A stretch of DNA of 37,451 nucleotides from Alphaproteobacteria bacterium (GCA_036398035.1 DASWHU010000042.1:1-37451); one strand, 5' to 3'. Counted from the stretch's first letter, positions 16,454 through 37,002 are shown. Made by a program: numbers and translations. The notes: a model not told the origin generated them from the letters alone.

Positions 16454-16462
16454 CGGGCGAAC

Positions 16463-18076
16463 GTGAAGCCCGACACGCTCGCGCGTTTCGCCGCGCCGCA
16501 GGGGATCGGAGTCGGCCGTGCCGCCCGCCCGGCGCTCGCGCTCGCCGGCGTGGTCGCCCTTGCCGCGGTCGCCCGCATCTGGGGTCTCGACCGGCATTCG
16601 CTGTGGCTCGACGAGGCGTTCAGCTATCACTACTCGGGCCTGTCGCTGCACGACATCTGGCGGGCGATGCCGCTCTACGAGAGCCACCCGCCGGTCTACT
16701 TCACGATCCTCAAGGCCTGGCGGGCGGCGTTCGGCGACGGCGAGGCGGCGATGCGCGGCCTGTCGGTGGCGGCCGGCACGGCCACGGTGGCGCTGGTCTA
16801 TCTGCTCGGCCGCCTTGCCGGCGGGCGGCGAGACGGGCACCGGATCGGGGCGTTCGCGGCGCTGCTGTTCGCGATCTCGCCGCTGCACCTCGACTTCGCC
16901 CAACAAGCGCGGCCCTATGCCCTGATCATACTTGCCACGGCAACCACCTTGTGCGGGGTCGCCTGGCTGCTGCGACATCCGGCGGTCGCCCGCTCGCCGT
17001 GGCTCGGCCTCGCGGCGATGCGCGCCCACCCGCGGCGCGCGCCGCTGCTGCGCCGCGGCCTCGCCGCCTGGGCGGCGACCGCGCTCGGCGTTGCGGCGGC
17101 ACTGTGGCTGCACGACACCGTGCTCGTGTATGCGGCCGCCCTGGGTTTGTTCGGGCTGTGGCTCGCCTGGCGCTGGGGCTGGCCCAGGTCCTTCGTCGCT
17201 AACCTGATGATCGCGGGCGCCGCCGCGCTGGCGCTGTGGCTGCCGTTCCTGCCCACCTTCGCCGTCCAGCTCGCCGGCGTGTCGCGTGCGTTCTGGATGC
17301 CTGACCTGACCTGGCAGGCGGCGCTGGCGCCGGTCGGCTTCCTGATGGACGTCCGCTTCGTCCGCCCGCTCACCGCGGCGCCGGTGCTGGTGTTGCTGGC
17401 GCTCGCCGGCGCCCGCGGCGTCGCCGGCCGGTCGGGGGCGCCGATGGCCGCGCTGCTGATCGGCGTCGCGGTTGCCGGCTACGGCCTGATGCTGCTTTTC
17501 TGCCTGCTCGTGCAGACAGTGCTGGTCGAGCGGACCCTGATCTGGATGAGCGTGCCGTTGCTGGTGCTGGTCGCGGCGGGCGTGGTCGGCCTCGAGCGGC
17601 GGGCGCTGCGCGCCGCCTCGGCCGTGGTCGTTCTCGGCTTCTCGATCTGGGGCGCGCTGGTCTTTCAGCTTGCCTATCAGCGCGAGCCTTGGCGCGACAT
17701 CGCCGCCCGCATCGGCGGCCAAGCCGTCGCCGGCGACGTGGTGGTCGTGATGCCCAACAGCCTGGCGCTGCCGCTCGCCTACTATCGCGACCGGCTGGGC
17801 GATCAGGTCGCGGTGCACGCCATGCCCGCGGCGTTCCCCGAGATCAGCCCCGACCGCGCCTATCCGACCAGCGTGCTGGCCGAGCCCGCGTTCGTGCGCG
17901 CGGACCTGCCCGCGCTCGATGCGGCGATCGCGGGCGCCGGCAGCGTCTGGGTGATCACGCGCCTGGACGATATCTTCGATCCCGACCGGCTGGTGCTCGG
18001 CCACATGCGCCAAGTCAGGACCGAGACCGAGCACTGGCCGGTCAGCGGCTATCTGCACGTCCACAGGTTCAGATAG
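16463..18076 (+). CDS. GT-C membrane glycosyltransferase (GT39/GT83, ArnT/PMT-like)
   Basis: LWLDEAFSY...HPPVYF...GDGEAAMRGLSVAAG matches the N-terminal periplasmic-loop region typical of proteins annotated as glycosyltransferase family 39. Many TM helices. Paralogous to the next gene. Confidence 0.75.
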   Translation: MKPDTLARFAAPQGIGVGRAARPALALAGVVALAAVARIWGLDRHSLWLDEAFSYHYSGLSLHDIWRAMPLYESHPPVYFTILKAWRAAFGDGEAAMRGLSVAAGTATVALVYLLGRLAGGRRDGHRIGAFAALLFAISPLHLDFAQQARPYALIILATATTLCGVAWLLRHPAVARSPWLGLAAMRAHPRRAPLLRRGLAAWAATALGVAAALWLHDTVLVYAAALGLFGLWLAWRWGWPRSFVANLMIAGAAALALWLPFLPTFAVQLAGVSRAFWMPDLTWQAALAPVGFLMDVRFVRPLTAAPVLVLLALAGARGVAGRSGAPMAALLIGVAVAGYGLMLLFCLLVQTVLVERTLIWMSVPLLVLVAAGVVGLERRALRAASAVVVLGFSIWGALVFQLAYQREPWRDIAARIGGQAVAGDVVVVMPNSLALPLAYYRDRLGDQVAVHAMPAAFPEISPDRAYPTSVLAEPAFVRADLPALDAAIAGAGSVWVITRLDDIFDPDRLVLGHMRQVRTETEHWPVSGYLHVHRFR

Positions 18077-18083
18077 GCGCCTG

Positions 18084-19667
18084 GTGGGCGGCATGGCCGA
18101 GATCGTGACAGCGGGCGCAAGCGCGCGCCGGACCACCGTCGCGCTGGCGGCCCTGGTCGCCGTCGCGGCGGCGCTGCGCGCGTGGGGGCTCGAGCGGCAG
18201 TCGCTGTGGATCGACGAGGCTTACGCGTACTGGTTCAGCAGCCAGTCCCTGCACGATTTGTGGCAGGTCTTTCCCGCCCACCACAACCACCCGCCGCTGT
18301 TCATGACCATGATGAAGGGCTGGCGCTGGCTGCTCGGCGACGGCGAGGCGGCGATGCGCAGCCTGTCGGTGGTGCCGAGCGTGCTGACCGTGCCGGTGGT
18401 CTTCGTCATGGGCCGGCTCGCCGGCGGGGCCGCGCGCGGCGCGCAGACCGGGCTGCTCGCGGCGCTGGTCTTCGCGCTGTCGCCGTTGCACATCGACTAC
18501 GCGCAGCAGGCCTACGTCTACACCTGGTTCACCCTCGGCGCCGGCCTGTCGCTCGCCGGCGCATTCTGGCTGCTGGTTCATGCTCGCGCGGCGGAGCGCC
18601 CGTGGCTCGACCTGCGGCGGGACACGCACCGTGCCGGCGAGGCGCGGGCAACCGGCGCCTGGGCGGCGACGGTGATCGGCTCGGCGCTCGCGCTGTGGAT
18701 GCACAATGTCGCCGTCGTCTACGTCGCCGCGCTCGGCCTGTCGGCGGCCTGGATCGGCTGGCGCGACGGCAGGCCGCGCTGGTATTTCGCCAACCTCGTC
18801 CTGGCCGGGCTTGCCGTGCTGGCGGTCTGGTCGCCGTTCGCGGCCAAGTTCGCGGCCCAGGTCGGGGTCGTCTCGGGAAACTTCTGGGTCGAGGACGTCA
18901 CCCTCGCCTCGGCGCTGCAGTTCATCCCGTTCCTGTTCGAGATCCGCTTCACCTGGCCGATCAAGGGCTCGGTGCTGCTGGTCCTGCTCGCCGCGCTCGG
19001 CCTGTTCGCGATCTCGCGCTGGGGGCGGCGCGACCTGACCCGGCTGATGCTCGGCGTGGCCGGCCTCGCCTACGCGCTGCTGCTCCTGTACTCGCTGCTG
19101 GTGCAGTCGATCCTGGTCGACCGGCTGCTGATCTGGGTCAGCCTGCCGTTCTATGTCGCGGTGGCCGCGGGATTGGTCGCGATGCGCCGGCGCTGGCTGA
19201 GGGTGCTGCTGGTGGTCGCGATCGTCGCCCTCAGCCTGCAGGGCTACGTCAACTACCAGAGGGGATTCGAGCGCGAGCCGTGGCGCAACATCGCCGCTCA
19301 CCTCGCCGAGCATGCAGGCCCCGACGACGTGGTCGTGAACCTGCCCAACGACAACGTGATTCCGCTCGCTTACTATCTCGACGCCGGCGGTGGCTCGCTC
19401 AAGCTCGTCGGGCTGCCGGTGCCGTACCCCTCCTTCGATGAGAGCCGGTTGAGCCCGGTCGGCGTGATCTTCACCCCGGCGGTCGAGGCGGCGGACCTGG
19501 CGCGGCTCGACGAGGTGACCGAGGGGGCGGCGGCGGTGTGGTACGTCGCGCGCGAGACCCGCCTGTTCGACCCCGACCAGATCGTGCTCCACCATTTGCA
19601 GAAGACGCGCCGGCTCGCCTGGCATTGGCCGGTGCGCCAGCACATCGACGTCTACTGCTTCGAGTGA
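18084..19667 (+). CDS. GT-C membrane glycosyltransferase (GT39/GT83-like), paralogue of 16463-18076
   Basis: LWIDEAYAY...HPPLFM...GDGEAAMRSLSV and REPWRNIAAHL align by eye with the previous gene (REPWRDIAARI). GTG at 18084 or ATG at 18093 could be the start. Confidence 0.75.
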   Translation: MGGMAEIVTAGASARRTTVALAALVAVAAALRAWGLERQSLWIDEAYAYWFSSQSLHDLWQVFPAHHNHPPLFMTMMKGWRWLLGDGEAAMRSLSVVPSVLTVPVVFVMGRLAGGAARGAQTGLLAALVFALSPLHIDYAQQAYVYTWFTLGAGLSLAGAFWLLVHARAAERPWLDLRRDTHRAGEARATGAWAATVIGSALALWMHNVAVVYVAALGLSAAWIGWRDGRPRWYFANLVLAGLAVLAVWSPFAAKFAAQVGVVSGNFWVEDVTLASALQFIPFLFEIRFTWPIKGSVLLVLLAALGLFAISRWGRRDLTRLMLGVAGLAYALLLLYSLLVQSILVDRLLIWVSLPFYVAVAAGLVAMRRRWLRVLLVVAIVALSLQGYVNYQRGFEREPWRNIAAHLAEHAGPDDVVVNLPNDNVIPLAYYLDAGGGSLKLVGLPVPYPSFDESRLSPVGVIFTPAVEAADLARLDEVTEGAAAVWYVARETRLFDPDQIVLHHLQKTRRLAWHWPVRQHIDVYCFE

Positions 19668-21038: not shown

Positions 21039-22145
21039 TCACACAGCGCGCGCGTCGCCGGCCGCGTGCGCGGCATCGGCGGCGTATCCGAGCCGCCGCG
21101 CGACCGCGTCCGTCGCCGCGGCGATCGCCTGCCGCTCGTGGTCCGAGAAGTCGGGCCGGTAATAGTCCGGGCGATGCAGCCGGCGGGCCTGGGCCTCGAC
21201 CAGTGCCGCGCCGGCCTCCAGCCGGCAATGCGCATACACCGCTCGCAGCGTCGTCTCGGGCCGGTCGCACAGGTCCTCGTAGCGGACGATCATGGTCGCC
21301 TCGGCCAGACCCGGGTGGGCGCCGATGCGGTCGAGGACGAAGCCGTACACCTGCGCCCATTGCAGCGCGTAGCCGGCGGCGTCCTCGCCCGCGGCCCACA
21401 GGCGGCGCACCTCGTCCGCCGCGCCGCGATCGCCGAGCTCGAGCGCGCGCCGGTCGAGCCCGAACTCGAAATGCCGCAGCCTCTGCATGTGCGCGAGGAT
21501 GCGCGCATCGCGCTGCTCCTCGCGGCAGAACAGGCGGTGCTGCTTGACCAGTGACGCGACATGGGCCTCGGGGTGGCGGACGGGGATGACGAAGCGCGCA
21601 TCGGGGAACAGCTCGTAGAGGTAGCCCAGCCGGGCGACGTGGTAGTTGTTCTTCGCCACGTACCGGCGGCCGCCGCGCACCAGCAGGATCTTGCGCAGGT
21701 GGTCGCGGTAGAAGCGGTCGAACGCGGCATCCCGGTCCGCGAAGCGTTGGTTCCAGAGCACCTCCTCGAACGCTTCCGGGCTTTCGGGCGTGACCAGCAG
21801 GCCGTCCTTGTGCGCCCGCTCGACGGGCTCCGCCGCGCGCCGCGGGACCAGCTCCAGGAACGCGTTCCACCACAGCGGCACCTGGATCGGCGGGACGTCG
21901 CGGTAGCTGTGGGTCGCCACCTCGGGATGCGCTGCCAGCACCTCCAAGAGGATCGTCGATCCGGCGCGCGCGAGCCCGGTCACGTAGATCGGGCCGACGA
22001 TGGGGATCGCCTCGAGCCGGGCCGCGTACCATCGGCTTTCCAGCGCCGCGAGACGCGTCAGGAGGCCGTGCGCGCGCTCGACGAGGGCGCCGAACCGGTG
22101 GCGGCTCGCCGACATCTCGATGGCGTTCGGTGGCGTTTCGGACAT
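21039..22145 (-). CDS. PAPS-type sulfotransferase family protein
   Basis: IYVTGLARAGSTILLEVL matches the 5'-PSB loop of Sulfotransfer_3-type proteins. No signal peptide. Lies 25 bp upstream of the ASST-like gene on the same strand. Confidence 0.7.
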   Translation of the reverse strand: MSETPPNAIEMSASRHRFGALVERAHGLLTRLAALESRWYAARLEAIPIVGPIYVTGLARAGSTILLEVLAAHPEVATHSYRDVPPIQVPLWWNAFLELVPRRAAEPVERAHKDGLLVTPESPEAFEEVLWNQRFADRDAAFDRFYRDHLRKILLVRGGRRYVAKNNYHVARLGYLYELFPDARFVIPVRHPEAHVASLVKQHRLFCREEQRDARILAHMQRLRHFEFGLDRRALELGDRGAADEVRRLWAAGEDAAGYALQWAQVYGFVLDRIGAHPGLAEATMIVRYEDLCDRPETTLRAVYAHCRLEAGAALVEAQARRLHRPDYYRPDFSDHERQAIAAATDAVARRLGYAADAAHAAGDARAV

Positions 22146-22627: not shown

Positions 22628-22670
22628 GTTCCGCTGCGCCCGGGCCCTGGCCCGGCGCTTGGTTCCGTGC

Positions 22671-23554: not shown

Positions 23555-24343
23555 ATGATCCGCCGGCGCGAGCCCGCGTTCGGCACCTTCGTCGGCGAGT
23601 TCGACACCCCGGGCATGGGCCACATCCTCGCTGCCGCGGGCTGCGACTTCGCGTTCCTCGACATGGAGCATTCCGGGCTGACCTTGGCCTCGGTCAAGGG
23701 CGCGGTGCGCCATTACGAGGCCGCCGGCGTGGCGCTGATCGTGCGCCCGCCGTCGAAGGCCTACGACCACATCGCGCGGGTGCTCGACACCGGCGCCGAG
23801 GGGGTGTGCCTGCCCTGCGTCGGCAGCGCCGAGGAGGCGCGCGCGATCGTCGCTTCCGCCAAATACCCGCCCGCGGGCGAGCGCGGCATCGGCCTCCAGC
23901 TCGCCCACGACAACTACGTCCGCGGCGAGGTCGCCGCCAAGCTCGCCGCCGCCAACCGGCGGAGCTGCGTGGTGCTGCAGATCGAGTCGGCAGAAGGCGC
24001 CGAGAACGCCGACGCCATCGCCGCGGTGCCGGGGGTCGATGCGTTGTGGATCGGCCACTACGACCTCAGCGCCTCGCTCGGCATCGCCGGCCAGTTCGCG
24101 CATCCCGATTTCCTGGCCGCGGTGCGCCGCGCCATCGACGCCTGCAAGCGGCACCGGCGCGGGCTCGGCATGGTGGTCGGCTCGCCTGAGCAGGGCCTCG
24201 ACATGATCGGCGCCGGCTTCAACCTGATCGCCTATTCGGGCGACGTGTGGCTGTTGCGCGACGCGCTCAGCGCCGGTATCGATGCGATGCGCGACGGCGC
24301 CCGCGTGCGCCTGGGCGCGGAAACCGGCAGGGGCAAGGCATGA
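23555..24343 (+). CDS. HpcH/HpaI-family 2-keto-3-deoxy-acid aldolase
   Basis: FGTFV...AAAGCDFAFLDMEHSG...LIVRPP...VLQIESAEG...IGHYDLSASLG is typical of the family. ATG at 23555 is preferred. The stop overlaps an ATG (ATGA at 24340-24343). Confidence 0.88.
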   Translation: MIRRREPAFGTFVGEFDTPGMGHILAAAGCDFAFLDMEHSGLTLASVKGAVRHYEAAGVALIVRPPSKAYDHIARVLDTGAEGVCLPCVGSAEEARAIVASAKYPPAGERGIGLQLAHDNYVRGEVAAKLAAANRRSCVVLQIESAEGAENADAIAAVPGVDALWIGHYDLSASLGIAGQFAHPDFLAAVRRAIDACKRHRRGLGMVVGSPEQGLDMIGAGFNLIAYSGDVWLLRDALSAGIDAMRDGARVRLGAETGRGKA

Positions 24344-24372
24344 GCAAGTTCCGGGTCGCCATCTCGGGCGAC
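24249..24372 (+). repeat. left copy of the 124-bp direct repeat (aldolase 3' end plus first 33 nt of the dehydrogenase)
   Basis: Hand alignment with 31049-31172: identical except at 24267, 24269 and 24331. The offset is exactly 6800 bp. Confidence 0.95.
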
Positions 24373-24411
24373 TCCCTTGCGGTCGCGCTCCCCGGCGATC
24401 CCGTGAAATAG
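24340..24411 (+). pseudogene. orphan 5' fragment of the D-2-hydroxyacid dehydrogenase gene
   Basis: MSKFRVAISGD is identical to the start of the intact gene at 31140. It then diverges and stops after 23 codons. Confidence 0.8.
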
Positions 24412-24472
24412 GCGCCGGCCGCACGCGTCAGTCGCGACAATGATCGAGCGACCGCGTCACGGCGCCAGCGGT

Positions 24473-24709
24473 TCAGCGATCGATCCGCCGTCCGCTTCCA
24501 TCAGGCGCGCGGCCGCGATCGGGTGCATCGATGCACCAGGGCTCCATCGCCGTGCGCACCACGAGCATTACCCCGAACAGCTCCGGGTTGAAGATCTGGT
24601 TGGCCGCGGTGGACAGGATCCCCTGCTCGCAGTAGTGCGGCTTCGCGCCGTCTCCGGCGCAGGCGCAAAGGAGTGCTACCGACAGAGTGATCAAGACGCG
24701 ACAATTCAT
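24473..24709 (-). CDS. small predicted lipoprotein (78 aa)
   Basis: MNCRVLITLSVALLCAC has an atypical lipobox (LCAC). Two further Cys in the mature part. Weakest call of the five. Confidence 0.4.
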   Translation of the reverse strand: MNCRVLITLSVALLCACAGDGAKPHYCEQGILSTAANQIFNPELFGVMLVVRTAMEPWCIDAPDRGRAPDGSGRRIDR

Positions 24710-24790
24710 CGCCCGCGCGCTGCTGCACGACCGGTCCGCGACCTCGACCGGCGGGCCTGCGGCACACGCGCGCCGGACTCCCAAGGCGCG

Positions 24791-25129
24791 CTACCCGCAT
24801 ACATGATCCTCGACGTCCTGGGAGGCGAGGCCGATCAGGAATCCCATCGGCGCGAAAAACACCCCGGCGATTGCCATCAGGGGGTAGTTGGCAGGATTGC
24901 ATGCGAACACGTCGCCGTTCGCACACGCCTCGGCCATGTCGTCCATGGTCGCGAAGAAACCCATCGAGAACTCGGCCGCGGCCTCGACCCTTCCGCAGGA
25001 CTCCGCCTGTTGCGGGGAGTCGGCCGCAATGCTCGCGGTGTTAGGCTCTGTGCTGGCGCACCCCGAGACCATCAAAGCCGAGGCGAGAATTGAAAGGCCA
25101 AAGCGAGTCGTCGTGAAAAGCTGAATCAT
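24791..25129 (-). CDS. small predicted lipoprotein (112 aa) with C-terminal hydrophobic segment
   Basis: MIQLFTTTRFGLSILASALMVSGC has lipobox VSGC. GGAGGA lies upstream of ATG 25129. Four further Cys. The segment YPLMAIAGVFFAPMGFLIGLA is hydrophobic. Confidence 0.6.
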   Translation of the reverse strand: MIQLFTTTRFGLSILASALMVSGCASTEPNTASIAADSPQQAESCGRVEAAAEFSMGFFATMDDMAEACANGDVFACNPANYPLMAIAGVFFAPMGFLIGLASQDVEDHVCG

Positions 25130-25295
25130 GGCAGTCCTCCATTTCAACTTGGATCGCCGGGTTGCACTGCAATGCAGGACTCATCCAGCACATCGCGTTC
25201 TCCGCCGTCCTCCCCCATCTCATGCCGCACGCCGGCCGCGGCTACAAGCCATAGCGAAGAGACCATCGAACTGTCATCGTCAAGCCGGGTCGGTG

Positions 25296-25628
25296 TTATT
25301 CGCTGATGTCATGGCCTTTCTCGCGAAGACAGTCCTTGAACGTCTCCTCATAAGCCCGATCTTCCGCGGACGCCGCATACTCTAACGTGAGCCAGGCGCC
25401 GAGGCCGCCGGTCAGAATCGCAATCGTCTCTGCCTCGTCTGACATTTCGGCAACCCTGTCGAAGGCGGCTCTACGGGCTCGCGCTTGGCATTCGCTCTTG
25501 TGAACTTCAGAGATGTCTTCCGGGGGTGAATAGGAGAACCGCTCATCCCCGGCGGGCCGCGCAAAGGCGCAACCGCTCACGGCATAGGCAGTCAGAACAA
25601 CTGCAATGCCACAGCTAAGTCGCGTCAT
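25296..25628 (-). CDS. small predicted lipoprotein (110 aa)
   Basis: MTRLSCGIAVVLTAYAVSGC has lipobox VSGC. Two further Cys. The C-terminal AYEETFKDCLREKGH resembles a motif common in small proteobacterial lipoproteins. Confidence 0.6.
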   Translation of the reverse strand: MTRLSCGIAVVLTAYAVSGCAFARPAGDERFSYSPPEDISEVHKSECQARARRAAFDRVAEMSDEAETIAILTGGLGAWLTLEYAASAEDRAYEETFKDCLREKGHDISE

Positions 25629-25729
25629 GCCATGACCAACCGAGGAACGCAAGCGCAGCGCTCGGGGATGTCCCGCGCAGCCTGAACGCAACTGCTTGGG
25701 TTGACTCTCGTGACATTGCAACATGTTTG

Positions 25730-26206
25730 CTACATCCTTTTCCCGAGGACGACTTCTCCGGTATCCGCGTCCTCCATCCATACGAACGACGTGTACCCAG
25801 GGTGGGACCAACAGAAAATCGGAAAGCACGTGTCCTCCTCAACGTTGTAGGTTCGGCCCGCCAATAGGTTGACTTCACCAACTGCCAAGGCAGTGGTACT
25901 CTTTCGTCCCCTGTGTCGAAGGCTGATGTAGTATGTACCCGGCAGAAGCATAATCTTATTGGGGAAATCAAACGTGCTGGCCGCCCCGGACGGTGCCGAA
26001 TAAATTTTTTTGCTCTCGGAATTTATCCATGTCACGCAACTCCAGCACCCCGCACCCTGATCGATGATTGCGACCTCGTTCTCGGGGCGAGGTGTGCCGT
26101 CGTAGGCGCTCAACTCCGGGCCGGCGTGATTCCAGTACACTCCGCAACCCGACACGCACAGGGTCGCGAGGATAAGAACGCTCCTTGAAAGGGCCGAGCG
26201 AAGCAT
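25730..26206 (-). CDS. predicted lipoprotein (158 aa), possibly DUF2846/PEGA-like beta-sandwich
   Basis: MLRSALSRSVLILATLCVSGC has lipobox VSGC. LLPGTYYISL...LLAGRTYNVE pattern. Four further Cys. Confidence 0.65.
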   Translation of the reverse strand: MLRSALSRSVLILATLCVSGCGVYWNHAGPELSAYDGTPRPENEVAIIDQGAGCWSCVTWINSESKKIYSAPSGAASTFDFPNKIMLLPGTYYISLRHRGRKSTTALAVGEVNLLAGRTYNVEEDTCFPIFCWSHPGYTSFVWMEDADTGEVVLGKRM

Positions 26207-26312
26207 TATTCACCTCCTGACAGTCGCCGGGCCGTCGGCGCTCGAAGCGGCTTCGCGAGCGATGAGCGGCCGGCGATTAAGGCGATGGCCAAGGGCCTTG
26301 CGATCGAGCGGT

Positions 26313-27005
26313 TCACGGCTGCGCCCCACCATAAGGTCGGTCGCTGGTGCGCAATTCCGCCGCGATCTGGTCGTCGGCGATCACGGCGGACTGCTTCTGC
26401 TGCTCGAGCTCGGCGAGACTCCGGTCCGAGGCCGCCTTCAGGGCGGCCTTGTTGTCCTCGCAGTCGTTCCTGGTCTGGCGGCCAGCCGAGGCTTGCGCGC
26501 AGCTCCGGTCAAATTGCTCCTCGACGAGCCTGAACTTGGCTTCGATGTCCTCGGCGCGCGTGGCAAAGAACCGGTCGCGGGCCTCCGCGGTGGGGAAGCT
26601 CGCAGGATACAAGGCAAATCGAACCGTCTCCGGATACTCGCTCATCGAGCCCGAGGCCGCGTCGACGACGAGGCCGACTCCGCCGCCGAGGAGCCCGAAC
26701 AGAATGTTCCCCGCCGCCCAGCCGGAGGTGCCCGAGGCAACGGTCTGGCGGGTATCCAGGTAGCCGTCGCGGGTGCAGGCGATCTCAAGGCCATTGGCGC
26801 TCTTGCTGATCTGGATCGTGCCGGGCGTGCTGCTCACGGCGCCGACCATCGCTCCGTCGCGCGAGATCTCGCATTTGGCGCGGCCCGGGTCGGTGGCGAC
26901 CGTAAAGGGCTGCGTCGACCCTTTGACCACCGTCGCGCAGGCGTGCAGGAACGGGGCGGCAAGGATGACGAGCGCGACGGCGAGGACATTGGTTTGCCGG
27001 CTCAT
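26313..27005 (-). CDS. predicted lipoprotein (230 aa) with Gly-zipper and coiled-coil-like tail
   Basis: MSRQTNVLAVALVILAAPFLHAC has lipobox LHAC. GNILFGLLGGGVGLVVD is a glycine zipper. Four further Cys. The start overlaps the radical SAM stop (ATGA at 27002-27005). Confidence 0.7.
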   Translation of the reverse strand: MSRQTNVLAVALVILAAPFLHACATVVKGSTQPFTVATDPGRAKCEISRDGAMVGAVSSTPGTIQISKSANGLEIACTRDGYLDTRQTVASGTSGWAAGNILFGLLGGGVGLVVDAASGSMSEYPETVRFALYPASFPTAEARDRFFATRAEDIEAKFRLVEEQFDRSCAQASAGRQTRNDCEDNKAALKAASDRSLAELEQQKQSAVIADDQIAAELRTSDRPYGGAQP

Positions 27006-28567
27006 GATGTCGGCCTCCTGTTGTCGGACGGCCCGCAGGCCACACTGGGAATCCCGAAATGGCGCCGCTCGCTGCGCGCGTCCGGATCGACGTCGTCGGC
27101 CACGTCGTCATGCAGGGCGCCGTGCGCGTCGCTGACCATGGTCGGGCGGAAGTACGCCTCGAAGCGCGCCGGCAGGCGCATGAACGGCCGGTACAGCGGA
27201 TCGAGCTCCTCGGTGCTGGCGAGGTAGGTCCGGCGCGGGCGGCGCAGCCGCAGCCTGAGCGGCGAGGACGCGAACGTCTCGTTGCTGATCAACGCGCTCG
27301 TGACCATGGCGGCGAACAGCTGCAGCGGCGTCAGCCGGCGCCGATAGTGGCGGAGGAAACGGACCGCGTGTCTCAGCACGCGCGTGCGATAGCCGCGCAA
27401 GGACGGCAGGTCGCGGGCGAACCCTACCGCCTCCTCAAGCCGGTCGAGCGACCGCAGCGCCAAGGTCACTCCGTCGAGATCGCGCAACCTGACATGCGGC
27501 AGGAGCCGATGCTGAGCCAAGCAATCGTAAAAGTACGGCGTGCCGAGCAGAGGGATGGACAGGGTGAAGTACGCCGGCAGCGTGATCGTCGGCGTGTCCA
27601 GCAGCAGCCCGATCTCGGCCCTCAGCTTCTCGAGGCGGCGTACGCTTGGATCGAGCATGATGCCGTAGCTGAACAGCACGCCCGCCTCGAGGCAGGTTCG
27701 GATCATCTCCAGCTGGGGCACCACGGTGCTGTGGCGCTTGTTGTGGGCGCGCAGGGTCTCCGCGTCGAGGGACTCGACGCCGCTGAACAGCGACTGGCAT
27801 CCCGCCTCGCGCACCAGATCGAGGTTCTCGCGGCGGGCGAAGAAGTCGCCCGTGACCAGCGCCGACCAGCCGTCGATCCGTCCGCTGCGATAGAAGTCGC
27901 GAAGCAGGGCGACGCGGTCGAGGAAGAACCTGCGGTCGTTGCCATAGAAATTGTTGTCGATCAGGACGATCTGCTTTTTGCCTACCGCCTCGATCTGGCG
28001 CTTCAGGTAGTCGATCTCGTAGTGCCGGTAACGGCCGCCTTCGCCCGTGAGCGAGCAGAAGCCGCAGCGGAAGTTGCAGTTGCGGCTCGACTCGACGTAA
28101 GCGACCAGGCGGTGCGGGTCGGCGAGATCGAAGCGGGGGAACATCTCCTCGGCGACGTGGGCGGGGCCGAGCGCATCGCGCGCCACCTCCTGAAGGGCCT
28201 CGATGTCGCCGGTGCACGGATAGTCGAAGAAGCGCGCCGCCCGCCGGGGCAGGGCGCGGATCGCCGGCCCGCCGGCGGCGACGATCACGCGCGGATTGAG
28301 TGTCCGGGCGTAAGCGGCCAGATGCAGCATCCGGTCGAACGACGAGGTCACGCCCGTGAGCACCAGCAGATCGGGCGAGCCGAGTAGGGCGGCGTCGTGG
28401 AGCGGGCCGCTGTATTGCTCGTTGTAGAGACGGACCTCAGTGGTCGAGCGCTCGAACGCGCCCGCCAGGAAGACGTGTCCCATCGCGCGCGGCACGCGGT
28501 GCGGGCTGCCGGCCGTCCGCCGGTACTCGTCGAAGAAGGCGTTGACCACCAGAACGCGCTTGCCCAT
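27002..28567 (-). CDS. B12-binding-domain radical SAM protein (class B)
   Basis: The N-terminus VLVVNAFFDE...LLVLTGVTSSF...VIVAAGGP is B12-binding-domain-like. SSRNCNFRCGFC is the CX3CX2C cluster motif. SLFSGVES. Long C-terminal extension. 521 aa, no signal peptide. Confidence 0.88.
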   Translation of the reverse strand: MGKRVLVVNAFFDEYRRTAGSPHRVPRAMGHVFLAGAFERSTTEVRLYNEQYSGPLHDAALLGSPDLLVLTGVTSSFDRMLHLAAYARTLNPRVIVAAGGPAIRALPRRAARFFDYPCTGDIEALQEVARDALGPAHVAEEMFPRFDLADPHRLVAYVESSRNCNFRCGFCSLTGEGGRYRHYEIDYLKRQIEAVGKKQIVLIDNNFYGNDRRFFLDRVALLRDFYRSGRIDGWSALVTGDFFARRENLDLVREAGCQSLFSGVESLDAETLRAHNKRHSTVVPQLEMIRTCLEAGVLFSYGIMLDPSVRRLEKLRAEIGLLLDTPTITLPAYFTLSIPLLGTPYFYDCLAQHRLLPHVRLRDLDGVTLALRSLDRLEEAVGFARDLPSLRGYRTRVLRHAVRFLRHYRRRLTPLQLFAAMVTSALISNETFASSPLRLRLRRPRRTYLASTEELDPLYRPFMRLPARFEAYFRPTMVSDAHGALHDDVADDVDPDARSERRHFGIPSVACGPSDNRRPTS

Positions 28568-28681
28568 CGCACCTCACCCCAGTTCGCGCGTCGCCCATGC
28601 CCGGCCGGCGCCACTTGCCACGTGCGGAGAGTCTTCCCGGGCGCCGTCATGGTGGCGTACGCTGGCGCCGCCGCACGGCGT

Positions 28682-28715
28682 CAAATCCTCGTCAGGGCGG
28701 CGCAAATCCGGGTCA
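28682..28715. promoter_or_regulatory. candidate regulator-binding direct repeats in the divergent promoter region
   Basis: caaatcctcgtca (28682-28694) and caaatccgggtca (28703-28715). 11 of 13 positions identical, start-to-start spacing 21 bp (two helical turns). Confidence 0.35.
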
Positions 28716-28817
28716 CCGCCGCGCAGCGTCGGCACTCGCGGGCCGAGAAACCCCGTTTGCCCAAGCCCCGCCCGGGGGTAAGCTTGAGCGCCGTCGCCGA
28801 AGGGCGCGAGACAAGGG

Positions 28818-30971
28818 GTGGCGAATCACGTGGCGATAGCGGGCGTTTCCGTACGGCTGCTCGGCAGGCTCGAGGTCCGTTCATGCGAGGGGGCCGAGAT
28901 CCCCGTGCCCGGTCGAATGGCCCAGGCGTTTCTCGGTTACCTCGCCGCGCATTCGGAGCTGGCTGAGGGCCGCGAGACCCTTGCCGGCTTGTTCTGGGGC
29001 GACCGCTTTCGTGACCAGGCGCGCCACAGCCTGCGCCAGACCGTGCTGGTGTTGCGCAAGGCTTTCGAGGATGCGGGAGCGCAGGCGCTGGCGGCCGACG
29101 CCCATAGCGTCGCGCTCGACCCCGCAGTCGTCACGGTCGACGTGCAGCGTTTTCGGGCGCTCGCTGCCAGCGAGCAACGCGCCGACCTCGACGAGGCCTG
29201 CGCCCTCTATCGCGGTGAACTCTTGGCCGACGTGTCAGTGCGAGCGGACGGCTTCACCACTTGGCTCGACCGCGAGCGCGAGCAGCTGCGACAGCTGGCC
29301 GCGGACGCGTTCATGCGCCTCGCCCGGCTCGAGGCCGCGGAAGGCGCCCACGATGCCGCCATTGCCGCCGCCACTAGGGCGCTCGCGATCGAGCCGGCAC
29401 TTGAGGACTGTCATCGCGAGCTGATGCGCCTCTACCGGCTTCAGGGCAACCGATCGGCGGCTTTGCGCCAGTACCAGGCATGCGTCGAGGCGTTGCGGCG
29501 CGAGCTCGATGTCGACCCTGACCCGGCCACGGTCCGTCTGGCCGACGAGATCCGGGCCGCCAGGGACACGCCGCCGCCGACCGCGACCGGCGGGTCGACG
29601 CAGCCCGCCCAGCCGTCGCAGTGGCGCACTTGGCTGCCGTCGCGCCGTTGGCGGCGGCTGTCGCCCTACCTCGCCGGCGGCCTGCTGCTGCTGCTCGGCG
29701 CGATCGGCGGAGTGGCGCTACTGACCGGCGTCGAGCGCGTGCGCGAGGAGGCGCGCCAGGAGCGGATGCTTTTCCCGCTGCCGGCGCAGCCCTCGATCGT
29801 GGTCTTGCCGTTCAAGAACCTGAACCGCGACCCGGCCTATCAGGTGATGGTCGACGGCATGACCGAAGAGATCACCGCCGCGCTGTCGATGGTCTCGGAG
29901 ATGTTCGTGATCGCGCGCACCACCGCTCTCACCTACCGCGACCGGGCGGTCGACGTGCGCGAGGTGGCCGAGGAGCTCGGCATCCGCTACGTGCTCGACG
30001 GTGCAGTTCAGGTCGAGGAGGACCGCTTGCGCGTGCTGGTCGAGCTGGTCGACGCGATCGAGAACCGCCAGGTGTGGACGCACCGCTACGAGCGTGAGAT
30101 GACCAGCCTGTTCGAGATCAACGACGACATTACCCTCGAGGTGGTCACCGGCCTTCAGGTCCAGATTACCGAGGGCGAGCAGGACCGGATCTCCTTGGTG
30201 CACGGCACCGACAACCTGCAAGCCTGGCTGGTCGCCGGGCGCGCCCTCCAGCACCTTAGGCGCCTGACGCGCGAGGACAACGCGCGCGCCCGCGGCCTGT
30301 ATAGGCAGGCGATCGCCCTCGACCCGTCCTATCCCGGCGCCTACGACGGGCTGTCCTGGACCTATTTCATCGACGCCCGCTTCGGCTGGACGGAACGGCC
30401 CGACGAGGCCATTCGCCAGGCCGGCGAGCTCGCTCAGCGCACGCTCGAGCTGGACCCGGAGCGGCCGGCGACTTACGCCCTGCTGGGGGGCGTCCAGCTG
30501 ATGCTCGGCAACCACGACCAGGCGGTGGCGCTGGCCGAGAAGGCGGTCGAACTCAGCCCGAGCGGCGCCGACGTGACCGCGATCCTCGCCTTGATCCTGA
30601 CCTATGTCGGCGACTACCGGCGCAGCGTCGCGCTGTTTCAACGCGCGATGCGGCTCAGCCCCTCCTATCCCGACTGGTATCGCTGGTCGTTGGGGCGGGC
30701 CTATCGGCTGCTCGGGCGCCATCGCGATGCCGAGGCCACGCTCGCTTTCGAGGCGACGGAAGCCGGCGGCTCGATCGCGCCGCTGGTCGAGCTCGCCGCG
30801 ACCTATGCCGAGTTCGGCAAGATGCGCGAGGCGCGCCAGGTCGCCCGGCGGGTGGCGGCGGTGGCGCCCGGCTTTTCGGCGACCGCCTGGACGCGCATGC
30901 CGCCGCACCGCGACCAGGCGACCGCCGCCGCCGAACGCGCCGCCCTGATTCGCGCCGGACTTCCCGAGTAG
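28818..30971 (+). CDS. membrane-spanning SARP/BTAD-family transcriptional regulator with periplasmic TolB-N-like and TPR domains
   Basis: N-terminal wHTH plus BTAD (VRLLGRLEV..., LFWGD...ARHSLRQTVLVLRKA, VDVQRF, ...CHRELMRLYRLQGNRSAALRQYQ). One TM (LAGGLLLLLGAIGGVALLTGV). SIVVLPFKNLNRDP...DGMTEEITAALS module. C-terminal TPR-like repeats. Confidence 0.8.
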   Translation: MANHVAIAGVSVRLLGRLEVRSCEGAEIPVPGRMAQAFLGYLAAHSELAEGRETLAGLFWGDRFRDQARHSLRQTVLVLRKAFEDAGAQALAADAHSVALDPAVVTVDVQRFRALAASEQRADLDEACALYRGELLADVSVRADGFTTWLDREREQLRQLAADAFMRLARLEAAEGAHDAAIAAATRALAIEPALEDCHRELMRLYRLQGNRSAALRQYQACVEALRRELDVDPDPATVRLADEIRAARDTPPPTATGGSTQPAQPSQWRTWLPSRRWRRLSPYLAGGLLLLLGAIGGVALLTGVERVREEARQERMLFPLPAQPSIVVLPFKNLNRDPAYQVMVDGMTEEITAALSMVSEMFVIARTTALTYRDRAVDVREVAEELGIRYVLDGAVQVEEDRLRVLVELVDAIENRQVWTHRYEREMTSLFEINDDITLEVVTGLQVQITEGEQDRISLVHGTDNLQAWLVAGRALQHLRRLTREDNARARGLYRQAIALDPSYPGAYDGLSWTYFIDARFGWTERPDEAIRQAGELAQRTLELDPERPATYALLGGVQLMLGNHDQAVALAEKAVELSPSGADVTAILALILTYVGDYRRSVALFQRAMRLSPSYPDWYRWSLGRAYRLLGRHRDAEATLAFEATEAGGSIAPLVELAATYAEFGKMREARQVARRVAAVAPGFSATAWTRMPPHRDQATAAAERAALIRAGLPE

Positions 30972-31048
30972 TCCTAGCAGGCCGGGGGCTTGGCGATCCC
31001 ATCGCCCTTCGAGACGCCGCCACACGAATCGTCACATGCACGGTGCTC

Positions 31049-31143
31049 GGCTGTTGCGCGACGCGCCCGGCGCCGGTATCGATGCGATGCGCGACGGCGC
31101 CCGCGTGCGCCTGGGCGCGGAAACCGGCAGAGGCAAGGCATGA
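31049..31143 (+). pseudogene. orphan 3' fragment of the HpcH aldolase gene
   Basis: In-frame translation LLRDAPGAGIDAMRDGARVRLGAETGRGKA* equals the aldolase C-terminus apart from 2 residues. No upstream coding continuity. Confidence 0.8.
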
Positions 31144-31172
31144 GCAAGTTCCGGGTCGCCATCTCGGGCGAC
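31049..31172 (+). repeat. right copy of the 124-bp direct repeat
   Basis: See the left copy. This copy provides the start of the intact dehydrogenase gene. Confidence 0.95.
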
Positions 31173-32180
31173 CTTCTCAAGGACGACGGCACTCCGGCGA
31201 TCCCCGAGTTCGACCTGTCCCGGCTCGAGCGCGAGGCCGACGTCGAGTATGCCTACGTGGGGCGTGGCCCGGTGCTCGATGCGGGCGAGCTCGAGGACTT
31301 CGACGCCCTGATCCTGATGATGCCGCGCTTCGCGCCGGCTAGCGTGCCTAAGAGCGGCCGCCTGGCGGTGGTCGCGCGCGGCGGCGTCGGCTACGACACG
31401 GTCGACGTCGCCGCCTGCACCGAGGCCGGGATCGCGCTGGTCATCACGCCCGATGCGGTGCGCCGGCCGGTGGCGGTGATGGTGATCACCTTCATGCTGG
31501 CGCTGTCCGGGCACCTGTTCGCGCTCGACCGCATCACCCGCAAGGGGCCGTGGCGGGCGCGCACCGACTACATGGGGGTGGGGCTGATCGGGCGCACCTT
31601 CGGCCAGATCGGCATCGGCAACATCGGCGCCGAGACCTTGCGGCTGGCGAGGCCGTTCGGGCTCGAGCTGATCGCCCACGACCCGTATGTCGACCCGTCC
31701 ATCGCCAAGGACCTCGGCGTCAGGCTGGTCGATATGGAGACCGTGTTCCGCGACAGCGACTTCCTGTCGGTGAGCTGCCCGCTCAACGACGAGACCCGCG
31801 GCCTGGTCAACGCCCGGCGGCTCGCGCTGATGAAGCCAACCGCGTTCCTGATCAACACCTCGCGCGGGCCGGTGGTCGACCAGAGGGCGCTGACCGACGC
31901 GCTCAGGCGGCGGGCGATCGCCGGCGCCGGGCTCGACGTGCTGGAGAAGGAGCCGCCGGACCCCGCCGACCCGATCCTCACCCTCGACAACGTCATCGTC
32001 ACCCCGCACGCGCTGTGCTGGACCGACCAGATGTTCGCGACCATGGCGGAGAAGGACATCGACGCCTGCCTCGCCGTGATGCGCGGGCGGGCGCCGCAGA
32101 ACGTGGTCAACAAGGCGGTGCTGGATTCGCCGCGTTTTACCGACAAACTCACGGCCTACCGGAACGCATTCGGCAAGTAG
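31140..32180 (+). CDS. D-isomer-specific 2-hydroxyacid dehydrogenase family protein
   Basis: GQIGIGNIGAE (GxGxxG), INTSRGPVVDQRAL, GAGLDVLEKEP and TPHA motifs. ATG at 31140 corresponds to the coupled start seen at 24340. The ORF-track start at 30990 is rejected. Confidence 0.88.
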   Translation: MSKFRVAISGDLLKDDGTPAIPEFDLSRLEREADVEYAYVGRGPVLDAGELEDFDALILMMPRFAPASVPKSGRLAVVARGGVGYDTVDVAACTEAGIALVITPDAVRRPVAVMVITFMLALSGHLFALDRITRKGPWRARTDYMGVGLIGRTFGQIGIGNIGAETLRLARPFGLELIAHDPYVDPSIAKDLGVRLVDMETVFRDSDFLSVSCPLNDETRGLVNARRLALMKPTAFLINTSRGPVVDQRALTDALRRRAIAGAGLDVLEKEPPDPADPILTLDNVIVTPHALCWTDQMFATMAEKDIDACLAVMRGRAPQNVVNKAVLDSPRFTDKLTAYRNAFGK

Positions 32181-32328: not shown

Positions 32329-32367
32329 GGGCAACCGCATTTTGTGATTCGAAGTATCGTGGTGCAG

Positions 32368-34503
32368 ATGAGCGGCCTGCGCGACCTGACGCCGTTGCTG
32401 AAGCCGAGGTCGGTGGCGATCATCGGCGCGACGCCCGACGCGCGCCGCCCGGGCGGCCGGCCGCTCGACTACCTGCGCCGGTTCGGCTTCGCCGGGCCGA
32501 TCTATCCGGTCAACCCGCGCTATCGCGAGATCGCCGGCGTGCGCTGCTACGCGAGCGTCGCCGACATCGCCGAGGCGCCCGACATGGCGGTGGTCTCGGT
32601 GCCGGCGGCGGCGACCCTGGACGCGGTGCGCGACTGTCAGCGCGCAGGCGTGCCGGCGATGACCATCTACACCTCGGGCTTCGGCGAGACCGGCGCAGAA
32701 GGCAAGGCGCTCGAGGCCGAGCTGATCGCGCTCGCCGAGGCCAAAGGCACGCTGATCTGCGGGCCCAACTGCCAAGGGGTGGCCAACTTCCACGACCGCA
32801 TGGTCGCCAACTTCACCTCGGCGCTCGCCAACGAGGGGATCGATGCCGGCGGCATCGGCTTCGTCAGCCAGAGCGGCCTGTTCGCCGGCATCGTCACCGC
32901 CGAGTTCCGCCGCCGCGGGCTCGGCCTCGGCTATCTGGTGTCGAGCGGCAACGAGGCGGTGGTCGACTTCGCCGACGTGCTCGCGTTCATGGCCAGGGAC
33001 GAGCGCATCCGGGTGGTCGCCGGCTACCTCGAGGGCGTGCGCGACGGGCGCAAGCTCGCCGAGGCGGCGGCGGTGGCGCGCGAGTTAGCCAAGCCGGTGG
33101 TGCTGATCAAGGTCGGCCGCTCGCAGGACAGCGCCGCGGCTGCGGCCTCGCACACCGGTGCGCTCGCCGGCGCCTACGCGGTCTACGCCGCCGCGCTCGC
33201 CCAGTGGGGCATCCTCGAGGCCGACTCGATCCCGGAGCTGTTCGACCTGATCGAGACCTTCGCGGTCGGCGCGCGGCCGGCGCGCGGCGACCGGGTCGGC
33301 GTGATCACCAACTCGGGCGGCATCGGCGTCTATTGCGCCGACAAGGTGCGCGAGTGCGGCCTCACGATGGCGAGCTTCGCCAGCGGCACGGTCGAGGCGC
33401 TGAAGGCGCGCCTGCCCGCCTTCGGCTCGGCGCGCAACCCGGTCGACTTCACGCTGCAGGCCTACACCGACCCCGAGTCGGTCGGCGCGCATCTGAGGAA
33501 CGTGGTGCTCGATGACGGCGTCGACGTGGCGCTCGCCTTCTTCGGCATCCAGCTGCTCAACGTCGATGCGGTGGTCGACCAGGTCGCGGCGGCGAATGCG
33601 CTCAACGACAAGCCGGTGCTGGTCGGCTGGATGCTGGGCGATGCGTCCGGCCCGCCGCGCCTGCGCGCCGCCGGCATCCCGTGCTTCGACGACCCGCTGG
33701 CGGCGATCAAGGCGGCCAAGGCGCTGGTCCGTCAGGGGCGGATCGCCGCGACCGCAGCCGCGACGCGAACGCCCCATGCGATGGATGCGGCAGCGGCGTT
33801 GGTCGCCGGGCACGCGCCCGGCGCGCTCAGCGAAAGCGAGGCGCGCGCGGTGCTCGCGGCGGCCGGGATCGCGCCGGTGCCGGGCGCGCGGGCGGCCGAC
33901 GCCGAGGCCGCGGTGGCGGTCGCGCGCGAGATCGGCTACCCGGTGGTGCTCAAGGTCGACTCGCCCGACATCGCCCACAAGACCGAGGCCGGCGGCGTCG
34001 CGCTCGATGTCCGCGACGACGACGGCGTGCGCGCGGCCTTTGCGGCAATCACGGCGGCCGCCCGCGCGCATGTGCCCAAGGCGCGCATCCGCGGCGTCGG
34101 CGTCTACCGCATGGTGCGGGGCGGGGTCGAGATGATCTGCGGGCTGAGCCGCGATCCGGCGTTCGGGGCGGTGGTCCTGGTCGGCAGCGGCGGCATCCTG
34201 GTCGAGGTGATCGAGGACACCGCCCTCGGGGTCGCGCCGCTGGAGGAGGCCGATGCCGAGCGCATGATTGCCTCGCTCAAGGGTGCCGCGCTGCTCGCCG
34301 GCGTGCGCGGCCGCCCGCCCGCCGACACGCGCGCGCTGACCGAGGTGCTGCTCAGGCTGTCCGACCTCGCGCGCGCCTGTCCGGCCATTGCCGAGCTCGA
34401 CATCAACCCGTTGCTGGTGCTGCCCGAGGGCAAGGGCGCGCTTGCCGCCGACGCGCTGATCACCCTCGGCGGCGAGGCCGGTCGAAAGGCCGACTCCAAA
34501 TGA
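32368..34503 (+). CDS. ADP-forming acyl-CoA synthetase (acetate--CoA ligase family: CoA-binding, ligase-CoA and ATP-grasp domains)
   Basis: RSVAIIGAT...IYPVNPRY...GPNCQG in the N-terminal domains. C-terminal ATP-grasp (GYPVVLKV...HKTEAGGV). ATG at 32368 is preferred over GTG at 32344. Confidence 0.88.
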   Translation: MSGLRDLTPLLKPRSVAIIGATPDARRPGGRPLDYLRRFGFAGPIYPVNPRYREIAGVRCYASVADIAEAPDMAVVSVPAAATLDAVRDCQRAGVPAMTIYTSGFGETGAEGKALEAELIALAEAKGTLICGPNCQGVANFHDRMVANFTSALANEGIDAGGIGFVSQSGLFAGIVTAEFRRRGLGLGYLVSSGNEAVVDFADVLAFMARDERIRVVAGYLEGVRDGRKLAEAAAVARELAKPVVLIKVGRSQDSAAAAASHTGALAGAYAVYAAALAQWGILEADSIPELFDLIETFAVGARPARGDRVGVITNSGGIGVYCADKVRECGLTMASFASGTVEALKARLPAFGSARNPVDFTLQAYTDPESVGAHLRNVVLDDGVDVALAFFGIQLLNVDAVVDQVAAANALNDKPVLVGWMLGDASGPPRLRAAGIPCFDDPLAAIKAAKALVRQGRIAATAAATRTPHAMDAAAALVAGHAPGALSESEARAVLAAAGIAPVPGARAADAEAAVAVAREIGYPVVLKVDSPDIAHKTEAGGVALDVRDDDGVRAAFAAITAAARAHVPKARIRGVGVYRMVRGGVEMICGLSRDPAFGAVVLVGSGGILVEVIEDTALGVAPLEEADAERMIASLKGAALLAGVRGRPPADTRALTEVLLRLSDLARACPAIAELDINPLLVLPEGKGALAADALITLGGEAGRKADSK

Positions 34504-35119: not shown

Positions 35120-35206
35120 GCCCGCTTGGCGGAACTGGTAGACGCACGGGACTTAAAATCCTGAGGCCCTCGGGCCGTGTCGGTTCGAATCCGGCAGCGG
35201 GCACCA
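35120..35206 (+). tRNA. tRNA-Leu (anticodon UAA), class II with long variable arm, CCA encoded
   Basis: Acceptor stem GCCCGCU/AGCGGGC. D stem GCG/CGC. Anticodon stem CGGGA/UCCUG with loop CUUAAAA. Variable hairpin GGCCCUCGGGCC. T arm GUCGG-UUCGAAU-CCGGC. 3' ACCA. Confidence 0.95.
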
Positions 35207-35495: not shown

Positions 35496-36146
35496 ATGGC
35501 AGCAGCAGTGGAGATCGTCGCCGGGTTCCGGGCGCTCGCGACCAGCACCATCGGCAACGTCCTCGACGAGCTCGGGGTGGGCGGCCTGATCGTCAATTTG
35601 CGGCCGCTGGTCGCGAAGCGCCCGTTCTGCGGCCCGGCGGTCACCGCGCAGGAGACTCACGGCCCGTTCGGGAGCTATGCGCCCGAGGACTTCCGGGTCG
35701 GCGCGATCCTCGATGCCGCCGGCGCGGGCGATGTGTTGGTGATCGCCAACGACGGCGCGCAGGTCTCGACCTGGGGCGGCCTCGCCTCGCTCGCCGCCAA
35801 GCGCAAGGGCATTGCCGGCGCGGTGATCGACGGCGGCGCGCGCGACGCGGACGAGATCGAGGCGTGCGGCTTCTCGGTCTATGCCCGCCACCTGGTGGCG
35901 ACGGGCGGGCGCAAGCGCATCCGTGTCGACGCGATCGGCGTGCCCGTCGTGGTCGACGGCGTCGCGGTCAGCCCCGGCGACATCATCGTCGCCGACTCGA
36001 CCGGCATCGCCTGCGTGCCGGCCGCCGCCGCGGAACAGGTCCTGCGCCTCGCGCGCCAGTTCGACGCCAACGACCGCGCCTCGGCGAAGCTGCTCGATCA
36101 GGGCCTCAGCCTCGCCGACGCCATGCGCCGCTACGACACGATCTAG
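35496..36146 (+). CDS. RraA-family protein (RNase E regulator / 4-hydroxy-4-methyl-2-oxoglutarate aldolase family)
   Basis: TSTIGNVLDELG, GDVLVIANDG, WGGLASLAAKRKGIAGAVIDGGARD, and DGVAVSPGDIIVADSTG. Confidence 0.85.
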   Translation: MAAAVEIVAGFRALATSTIGNVLDELGVGGLIVNLRPLVAKRPFCGPAVTAQETHGPFGSYAPEDFRVGAILDAAGAGDVLVIANDGAQVSTWGGLASLAAKRKGIAGAVIDGGARDADEIEACGFSVYARHLVATGGRKRIRVDAIGVPVVVDGVAVSPGDIIVADSTGIACVPAAAAEQVLRLARQFDANDRASAKLLDQGLSLADAMRRYDTI

Positions 36147-36254
36147 CGCACGCCGCCGGCCGCGTACGCCTTCCTGCCCGGATCACGTCAAGGGAAAGAG
36201 GTCAGGCTCGGAAAACGGGTTCGTTCGACGGCAAGACCGTCGCAACCTCCCGCG

Positions 36255-36870: not shown

Positions 36871-37002
36871 GTGCCGGCCTCTGCGGCAGAGGATGTGCTC
36901 AACCTCGCGCGTCGGTTCGACGCCAATGATCGCACCTCGGCGAAGCCGCTCGATGAGAAGCTCAGCCTCGCCGAGCCCATGCGCCGCTTCGACGCGATCT
37001 AG
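36871..37002 (+). pseudogene. 3' remnant of a second RraA-like gene
   Basis: VPASAAEDVLNLARRFDANDRTSAKPLDEKLSLAEPMRRFDAI* aligns with the C-terminus of the intact gene (VPAAAAEQVLRLARQFDANDRASAKLLDQGLSLADAMRRYDTI*). 93 of the last 114 nt are identical by hand alignment. Confidence 0.7.

Follow-up and report, generated by a model that had tools for sequence, protein, structure and literature searches.

We analyzed a 37,451-nucleotide (nt) stretch of DNA from an Alphaproteobacteria bacterium (GCA_036398035.1 DASWHU010000042.1:1-37451; hereafter the window), in which a pair of metabolic genes is separated by inserted DNA that is flanked by long direct repeats. The first gene of the pair encodes an HpcH/HpaI-family aldolase (23555-24343, + strand; Pfam PF03328, E 2.7e-31) and ends within the left repeat copy, its TGA stop occupying 24341-24343. 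The second encodes a D-isomer-specific 2-hydroxyacid dehydrogenase (31140-32180, + strand; Pfam PF02826 and PF00389), starts within the right repeat copy and is followed by its syntenic downstream partner, an ADP-forming acyl-CoA synthetase gene (32344-34503, + strand; Pfam assignment). Between the repeat copies lie a radical SAM enzyme gene, a divergently oriented regulator gene and five genes for small predicted lipoproteins.

A repeat search of the window identified the flanking sequences (24249-24372 and 31049-31172, both + strand) as a 124-nt direct repeat that is identical at 121 of 124 positions, with a start-to-start distance of 6,800 base pairs (bp) and mismatches at offsets 18, 20, and 82 (positions 24267, 24269, and 24331). 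In the left copy, the final 95 nt of the aldolase gene run through the ATGA overlap of stop and start into the first 33 nt of the dehydrogenase gene. The right copy comprises an orphan aldolase 3' stub and supplies the dehydrogenase gene with its native ribosome-binding region and its 5' end. Besides these two copies, the 37.4-kb window contains no long repeat that is nearly identical, which excludes a chance origin.

Both split genes are intact. The aldolase aligns over its full length to orthologues in L046, the closest relative found (a 1.4-kb JGI contig; 87% amino acid [aa] identity), and in L002, an alphaproteobacterial metagenome-assembled genome (73% aa). The dehydrogenase likewise gives a full-length, 346-aa alignment to L002 (72% aa) and is 82% identical at the aa level in L046. 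What the duplication leaves over are two stubs, which are non-functional: a dehydrogenase 5' stub of 23 codons plus a stop (24340-24411, + strand; translation MSKFRVAISGDSLAVALPGDPVK and then the stop), whose frame enters unrelated sequence past the repeat and terminates at 24411, and the aldolase 3' stub (31049-31143, + strand; translation ending in LLRDAPGAGIDAMRDGARVRLGAETGRGKA and the stop). A first-pass annotation of the window had reported this repeat, its three mismatches, its spacing, its stop/start content, the two intact genes, and the two stubs, all of which our repeat search and translations reproduce. The right junction additionally creates a 35-codon mini-open reading frame (ORF) in the aldolase frame (31036-31143, + strand), which begins at an ATG at 31036 inside the insert edge, lacks a clear Shine-Dalgarno sequence upstream, and ends in an ATGA overlap with the dehydrogenase start.

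The same annotation had interpreted the locus as a 6.8-kb insertion splitting a translationally coupled gene pair. Consistent with an insertion, we identified empty sites in relatives. In L046 the aldolase and dehydrogenase genes are adjacent, with an ATGA overlap and a single junction copy; in L002 they are adjacent with a GTGA overlap and a single junction copy, and synteny extends upstream. The alignment that had been suggested as a check – joining the window's flanks and comparing them to related sequences – produced a single high-scoring segment pair across the junction in both cases (84% nt identity to L046 and 75% to L002). At nine more distant loci (L006, L009, L010, L021, L049, L054, L057, L059, and L063) the dehydrogenase gene directly follows the aldolase gene, and L010 also has the ATGA overlap. 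Two empty-site relatives, L002 and L063, likewise have an acyl-CoA synthetase gene 3' of the dehydrogenase gene. The insert genes are absent within 10 kb of the L002 aldolase gene; of the loci that we fetched, L054 alone shows any resemblance, a weak BTAD/TPR match (36% aa) situated ~2 kb upstream of the aldolase gene. The adjacent, single-copy junctions of these relatives confirm that the coupled adjacency is ancestral and that 24373-31048 was inserted. The proposed insertion is thus real, but the inserted DNA proper measures 6,676 bp. We rejected an ancient local duplication, or neighbours joined by a tandem duplication, as the source of the arrangement: no insert gene has a second copy in the window, and the relatives' genes are adjacent.

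The repeats had also been proposed to derive from the target, and the comparison of the copies agrees with this. Across the 124 aligned columns, the two copies share 97.6% identity, versus 76% and 66% for the orthologous junctions of L046 and L002. The extra copy is therefore DNA of the lineage itself (the recipient), as opposed to a conserved attachment site of external origin. Compared to the left copy, the right copy has two non-synonymous differences and one synonymous difference, and the right aldolase stub has a Leu to Pro change within a conserved DAL motif. At another of the three positions it is the right copy that retains the outgroup base, the left copy having changed. The three mismatches fit changes that accumulated in the two copies after the duplication.

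The original duplication may have been longer than the repeat now visible. A 13-mer (CCCCGGCGATCCC, 24390-24402), about 20 nt past the left repeat, is identical to the L046 dehydrogenase gene and nearly in register with the same motif in the dehydrogenase gene of the window, and the local-alignment score of the left stub tail against the dehydrogenase gene is equalled by 1.3% of random window segments. The tail at 24373-24402 may be a scrambled remnant of dehydrogenase nt 34-65, in which case the duplication, with the scrambled 20-nt patch included, may have been about 155 bp. In searches of the window, neither the scrambled 21 nt that follow the left copy nor the 19 nt that precede the right copy had a local template, and there was no extended homology leftward of the right copy (score under random expectation).

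Because repeats can cause mis-joins, and because the window and most of its relatives are metagenome assemblies, we considered whether the two-copy structure is an assembly artefact or a chimeric contig. Three contigs from different samples – the window, L001 (ENA ERZ27256875), and L072 (ENA ERZ27256989) – cross the two junctions in colinear order, with 99.3-99.5% identity. Neither repeat copy varies among these three contigs, each of which has the same three differences between copies, and strain-specific single-nucleotide polymorphisms (SNPs) are scattered over the flanks and the insert of the spanning contigs. The k141 contig names, moreover, suggest a final k-mer longer than the repeat. 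We therefore rejected the artefact, which is hardly credible given three independent contigs across both junctions. Five more contigs (two from JGI, one from ENA, and two from Logan) cover one junction or end inside the left copy; the left copy has the same sequence in L001, L042, L043, L072, and L073. All eight near-identical contigs carry the insert, and every contig of at least 99% identity that reaches the site is filled, which implies that the insertion is older than the divergence of these strains.

We observed several strain differences in and around the locus. Contig L073 (ERZ27256991) leaves the window sequence right after a CTAG (30974-30977), six bases past the stop of the regulator gene, and its positions 1-135 are an unrelated 135-nt sequence with a short ORF (MRKGVVVAVSAADRTRLEAVVA...) and no match in a plasmid database. 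A Logan contig, L074, breaks at the same base. This divergence is probably a strain-specific insertion sequence (IS) or mobile-element insertion; as an unrelated 135-nt sequence that starts at CTAG, it was rejected as an alternative right junction. At window position 22653, adjoining an HSP20 gene, L001 has a 12-nt sequence (CGGCGTTCGGTT) that is missing from the window, and SNPs between the window and L001 cluster at 21308-21317.

To clarify the nature of the inserted DNA (24373-31048), we analyzed its composition and gene content. The insert has a GC content of 67%, versus 70.6% for the window. GC at third codon positions (GC3) is 63-79% in four of the lipoprotein genes and 86-90% in the other three insert genes, compared to 93-95% in the aldolase, dehydrogenase, and synthetase genes. 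By composition, the insert looks foreign or mosaic. Its central gene (27002-28567, - strand) encodes a radical SAM enzyme with a B12-binding domain (Pfam PF04055 and PF02310) that belongs to an unnamed family: the protein scores under the cut-offs of all NCBIfam families, and the best of its 879 homologues outside the near-identical cluster is 69% identical. Divergently oriented is the gene for a BTAD and TPR transcriptional regulator (28830-30971, + strand; Pfam PF03704 plus TPR families). Downstream of the radical SAM gene and in the same orientation are the five small lipoprotein genes (24473-24709, 24791-25129, 25296-25625, 25730-26206, and 26313-27005, all - strand), whose products have predicted signal peptides and lipobox cysteines (the motifs being LCAC, VSGC three times, and LHAC) and have no family match in Pfam, NCBIfam, or PADLOC.

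The radical SAM/BTAD pair, with its divergent arrangement, is also conserved in other Alphaproteobacteria (L037-L041 and L076), where it occupies unrelated chromosomal sites with no flanking repeats and is not accompanied by the lipoproteins; at the four loci that we checked for these (L037, L041, L076, and L077), no radical SAM homologue has the five lipoprotein genes beside it. We thus rejected the idea that the radical SAM/BTAD pair forms a recurrently mobile cassette; the insert has the look of a mosaic. Matches to plasmids are only distant (65%, radical SAM gene only, on Ensifer and Sinorhizobium replicons) and the right junction has no match in viral contigs, so a plasmid or phage origin was likewise set aside. 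Defence or restriction-modification cargo was also rejected, the PADLOC and family scans having given no matches. Radical SAM homologues of 60-70% identity are found across many uncultured Alphaproteobacteria, consistently with a divergent BTAD/TPR regulator, and the neighbours of the pair in L041 are lipid-modification genes (a desaturase, a second radical SAM enzyme, an acyltransferase, and a CDP-alcohol transferase).

The first-pass annotation had reported no integrase, transposase, or relaxase in the insert, and the scans of the insert ORFs against Pfam, NCBIfam, and PADLOC bear this out, extending it to restriction-modification and defence domains. Intergenic gaps in the insert are at most ~285 nt – or ~105 nt if the predicted start of the 110-aa lipoprotein at 25625 is correct – and leave no space for a decayed recombinase gene. 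The non-coding margins of the insert are 100 nt and 77 nt. At its ends we found no terminal inverted or direct repeats beyond random expectation; the inverted alignment of the two ends is matched or exceeded in score by 67% of random window controls. A transposon was rejected, there being no terminal inverted or direct repeats of its own, no transposase, and a duplication of 124 bp.

These observations bear on a site-specific integration, in which the repeats would be attL and attR sites and a tyrosine or serine recombinase would have acted in trans or been deleted later, as in an integrase-less cis-mobilisable element. Direct repeats that rebuild the ends of the target genes are typical of integrase islands, and the lower GC3 marks the insert as foreign. 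Yet neither a recombinase gene nor a remnant of one is present in 24373-31048, the target is not a tRNA or transfer-messenger RNA gene (the sole tRNA gene in the window, tRNA-Leu(TAA) at 35120-35206, is 4 kb away), and the identity segment is long and lineage-specific, with no conserved attachment (att) core. The insert ends are also without arm-type motifs, the right-junction pattern does not occur in viral contigs, and none of the ~15 other loci with adjacent aldolase and dehydrogenase genes has an insertion at the junction. Taken together, site-specific integration appears improbable.

Short motifs near the repeat ends raise another possibility. The 9-mer TCGGGCGAC forms the last 9 nt of the repeat (24364-24372, and again 31164-31172), and a further copy at 24236-24244 – 128 bp upstream of the first – ends 4 nt before the repeat begins. 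This pair may be a microhomology relevant to the formation of the duplication, or it may be a coincidence. A two-step origin would begin with a microhomology-mediated tandem duplication of 128 bp between the copies at 24236 and 24364, after which foreign DNA was inserted or swapped into the redundant joint. The placement of TCGGGCGAC, exactly at the repeat end and 4 nt before its start, fits such a step, a 128-bp tandem duplication would keep both genes intact while making a dispensable joint, and for similar structures a path of tandem duplication with subsequent recombination has been put forward (PMC3457768). The sequence at the right copy argues otherwise: the expected joint, GTGT, is absent before it. 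Two independent rare events would have to fall on the same few bases, no genome with a bare tandem duplication was found among the compared loci, and TCGGGCGAC codes for Ser-Gly-Asp in preferred codons in the aldolase and dehydrogenase genes alike, so that its recurrence may be coincidental. We consider there to be little chance that the locus arose in two such steps.

A second motif, GGCGATCCC, occurs at 24394-24402, 30992-31000, and 31196-31204. These are three of its four copies in the window, where ~1.3 would be expected by chance, and all three lie within 60 nt of a repeat copy; the one at 30992, 57 nt before the right copy, is within a small palindrome (GGCGATCCCATCGCC).

Although the first-pass annotation considered a protein-gene junction unusual as a target, structures of this kind have been described. 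Nobusato et al. 2000 (Gene 259:99) is said to have described insertion with long target duplication earlier. To belong to the class, an insert must be shorter than 20 kb and flanked by target repeats of more than 30 bp (46-423 bp in the reported cases), a relative must have the empty site, and no other mobile element may be present (PMC2853133; Furuta 2010 NAR). Its repeats often span start or stop codons and thereby leave the target genes intact (PMC2853133). Restriction-modification cargo was a screening criterion in that survey (PMC2853133). A later paper recognised the pattern for 'other DNAs' too (PMC3457768), a statement which implies that restriction-modification cargo is not strictly defining. 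The locus analyzed here has 124-nt repeats immediately flanking the insert, empty sites with a single copy and colinear flanks in L046 and L002, and a 6,676-bp insert lacking mobile-element genes; it differs from the surveyed cases in its cargo, which has no restriction-modification or defence matches. Judged by its structure, the insert is a new, non-restriction-modification member of the known class.

The first-pass annotation favoured a circular element carrying a copy of the target junction, integrated through an attP-like site or by a Campbell-type crossover. This is possible but unsupported, as nothing at the locus points specifically to a circle or a crossover. In its Campbell form, a circle carrying the cassette and one junction copy would have recombined with the chromosome by a RecA-dependent single crossover; such a circle could have been excised from a cell of the same lineage through the repeat copies, or could have been a non-replicating plasmid. 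A length of 124 bp is enough for RecA-dependent recombination. The topology that a crossover predicts, with one target copy on each side, is exactly the one seen, and the 2.4% difference between copies could reflect divergence between donor and recipient strains. Excision, amplification, and re-entry through repeats of this kind have been hypothesised (PMC2853133), and a crossover could also spread an existing insertion within the population. The difficulty lies in the first circle, whose gain of the lineage's own junction is unexplained: because the duplicated segment is the lineage's own sequence, with 76% and 66% identity to the orthologous junctions, the circle must have taken it from the same site earlier, and the problem of the first duplication is only moved. 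Furthermore, genes for plasmid, replication, or transfer functions are missing from the insert, the search for a related plasmid gave none (best matches 65%, radical SAM gene only), and no empty-site strain of at least 99% identity that might have served as recipient was found. We regard a Campbell-type origin as unlikely.

With somewhat better than even confidence, we propose that a single event inserted 6.7 kb of horizontally acquired or mosaic DNA at the junction and duplicated the target by a host repair or replication route, without relying on any recombinase of the insert's own. One event, in the population's ancestor, would have placed the radical SAM/BTAD pair and the five lipoprotein genes into the aldolase/dehydrogenase junction, duplicating at least 124 bp, and possibly ~155 bp, of recipient sequence with one copy on each side. 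By one route, a fragment would have been captured at a break whose ends overlapped by ~124 nt – for example, one formed by two offset nicks – with the overhangs then filled in and joined by end joining. By another, replication would have switched template, departing from the chromosome at 24372 to copy the donor and coming back 124 nt upstream. The insertion would have survived because the stop of the aldolase gene and the start and ribosome-binding site of the dehydrogenase gene all fall within the duplication, leaving both genes complete, and the differences between the copies would have accumulated afterwards. The odd-looking choice of target could then reflect selection, since only a duplication that covers these elements leaves both genes whole. 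Given a cargo free of nucleases, we consider a host process a likelier cause of the joining than breakage by a restriction enzyme.

Several points weigh against this proposal. We found no empty-site allele among strains of at least 99% identity. The donor locus was not found either (the best radical SAM homologue being the one of 69% identity). Restriction-modification genes are the usual cargo of published cases, whose authors link the process to breakage of DNA by these enzymes (PMC2853133), whereas the cargo here is without a nuclease. Finally, the unexplained motif coincidences – TCGGGCGAC at the repeat end and 4 nt before its start, and the three copies of GGCGATCCC – might signal a more specific mechanism.

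Whatever the route, the insertion has changed the setting of the downstream genes. We infer that 6.8 kb of DNA, with a convergent operon in it, lies between the aldolase promoter and the dehydrogenase and acyl-CoA synthetase genes and isolates these genes from it. As the first-pass annotation had noted, the dehydrogenase gene now sits behind the regulator gene of the insert: its start is 168 nt downstream on the same strand. No terminator is predicted between the two genes, which fits read-through. The dehydrogenase and synthetase genes are probably expressed by read-through from the regulator gene or from a local promoter.

These results provide a clean, multiply assembled natural case of recombinase-free insertion for which both filled and empty sites are available. 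The locus shows that an insertion into a translationally coupled pair can be tolerated when the stop, the start, and the ribosome-binding site are rebuilt, the price being that downstream genes are rewired to new transcriptional control. A nuclease-free cargo weakens the idea that such insertions need restriction enzymes and points to host repair or replication. It is conceivable, and we suggest this only tentatively, that insertion with long target duplication is a general host-driven route by which foreign DNA lacking mobility genes becomes fixed, as opposed to a peculiarity of restriction-modification systems, and that the ~124-155-bp duplication is a direct product of the joining, by staggered-break fill-in and end joining or by template switching. 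If so, the repeats could permit reversible excision or amplification of the cassette. The well-defined junctions should in any case be useful for testing the mechanism of the class.

Other, more diverged repeats are present elsewhere in the window. A 188-nt direct repeat of 71% identity (16638-16825 and 18241-18428) falls within a tandem series of three ORFs (14699-19667; ~530-580 aa each), one of which matches the PMT_2 glycosyltransferase family; the three ORFs are probably tandem paralogues. The lower-GC end of the window, past the tRNA-Leu(TAA) gene, has a 133-nt direct repeat of 81% identity (36015-36147 and 36871-37003; 856 bp apart).

Comparison to characterized systems clarifies the position of this locus. 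Like transposon and IS insertions, it has inserted DNA flanked by a directly duplicated target, but the duplication is 124 bp, versus typically 2-14 bp (19-26 bp for IS1630; PMC2853133), and there are no terminal inverted repeats and no transposase. The product topology, with one homologous copy on each side, is that of a Campbell integration, which would in this case need a circle with the recipient's own junction; no such molecule and no plasmid functions were detected. With integrase-mediated genomic islands and their integrase-less cis-mobilisable derivatives it shares foreign DNA and direct repeats that restore interrupted gene ends. It differs from them in having no recombinase gene and no tRNA or conserved target, in that the repeat is lineage-specific coding sequence with no conserved att core, and in that the site is not recurrent in other genomes. 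The closest likeness is to insertions with long target duplication, with which it shares a small insert, long direct repeats (124 bp here) that duplicate a sequence present only once at the empty site, the lack of an integrase, transposase, or other mobile element, intact genes with the stop and start spanned, and an atypical base composition. Where published members mostly carry restriction-modification genes, this one carries a radical SAM enzyme, a BTAD/TPR regulator, and lipoproteins. With no nuclease in the cargo, the proposed link to self-inflicted double-strand breaks cannot apply here. The host, too, is different – an uncultured, high-GC alphaproteobacterium – and the target is an ATGA overlap inside an operon.

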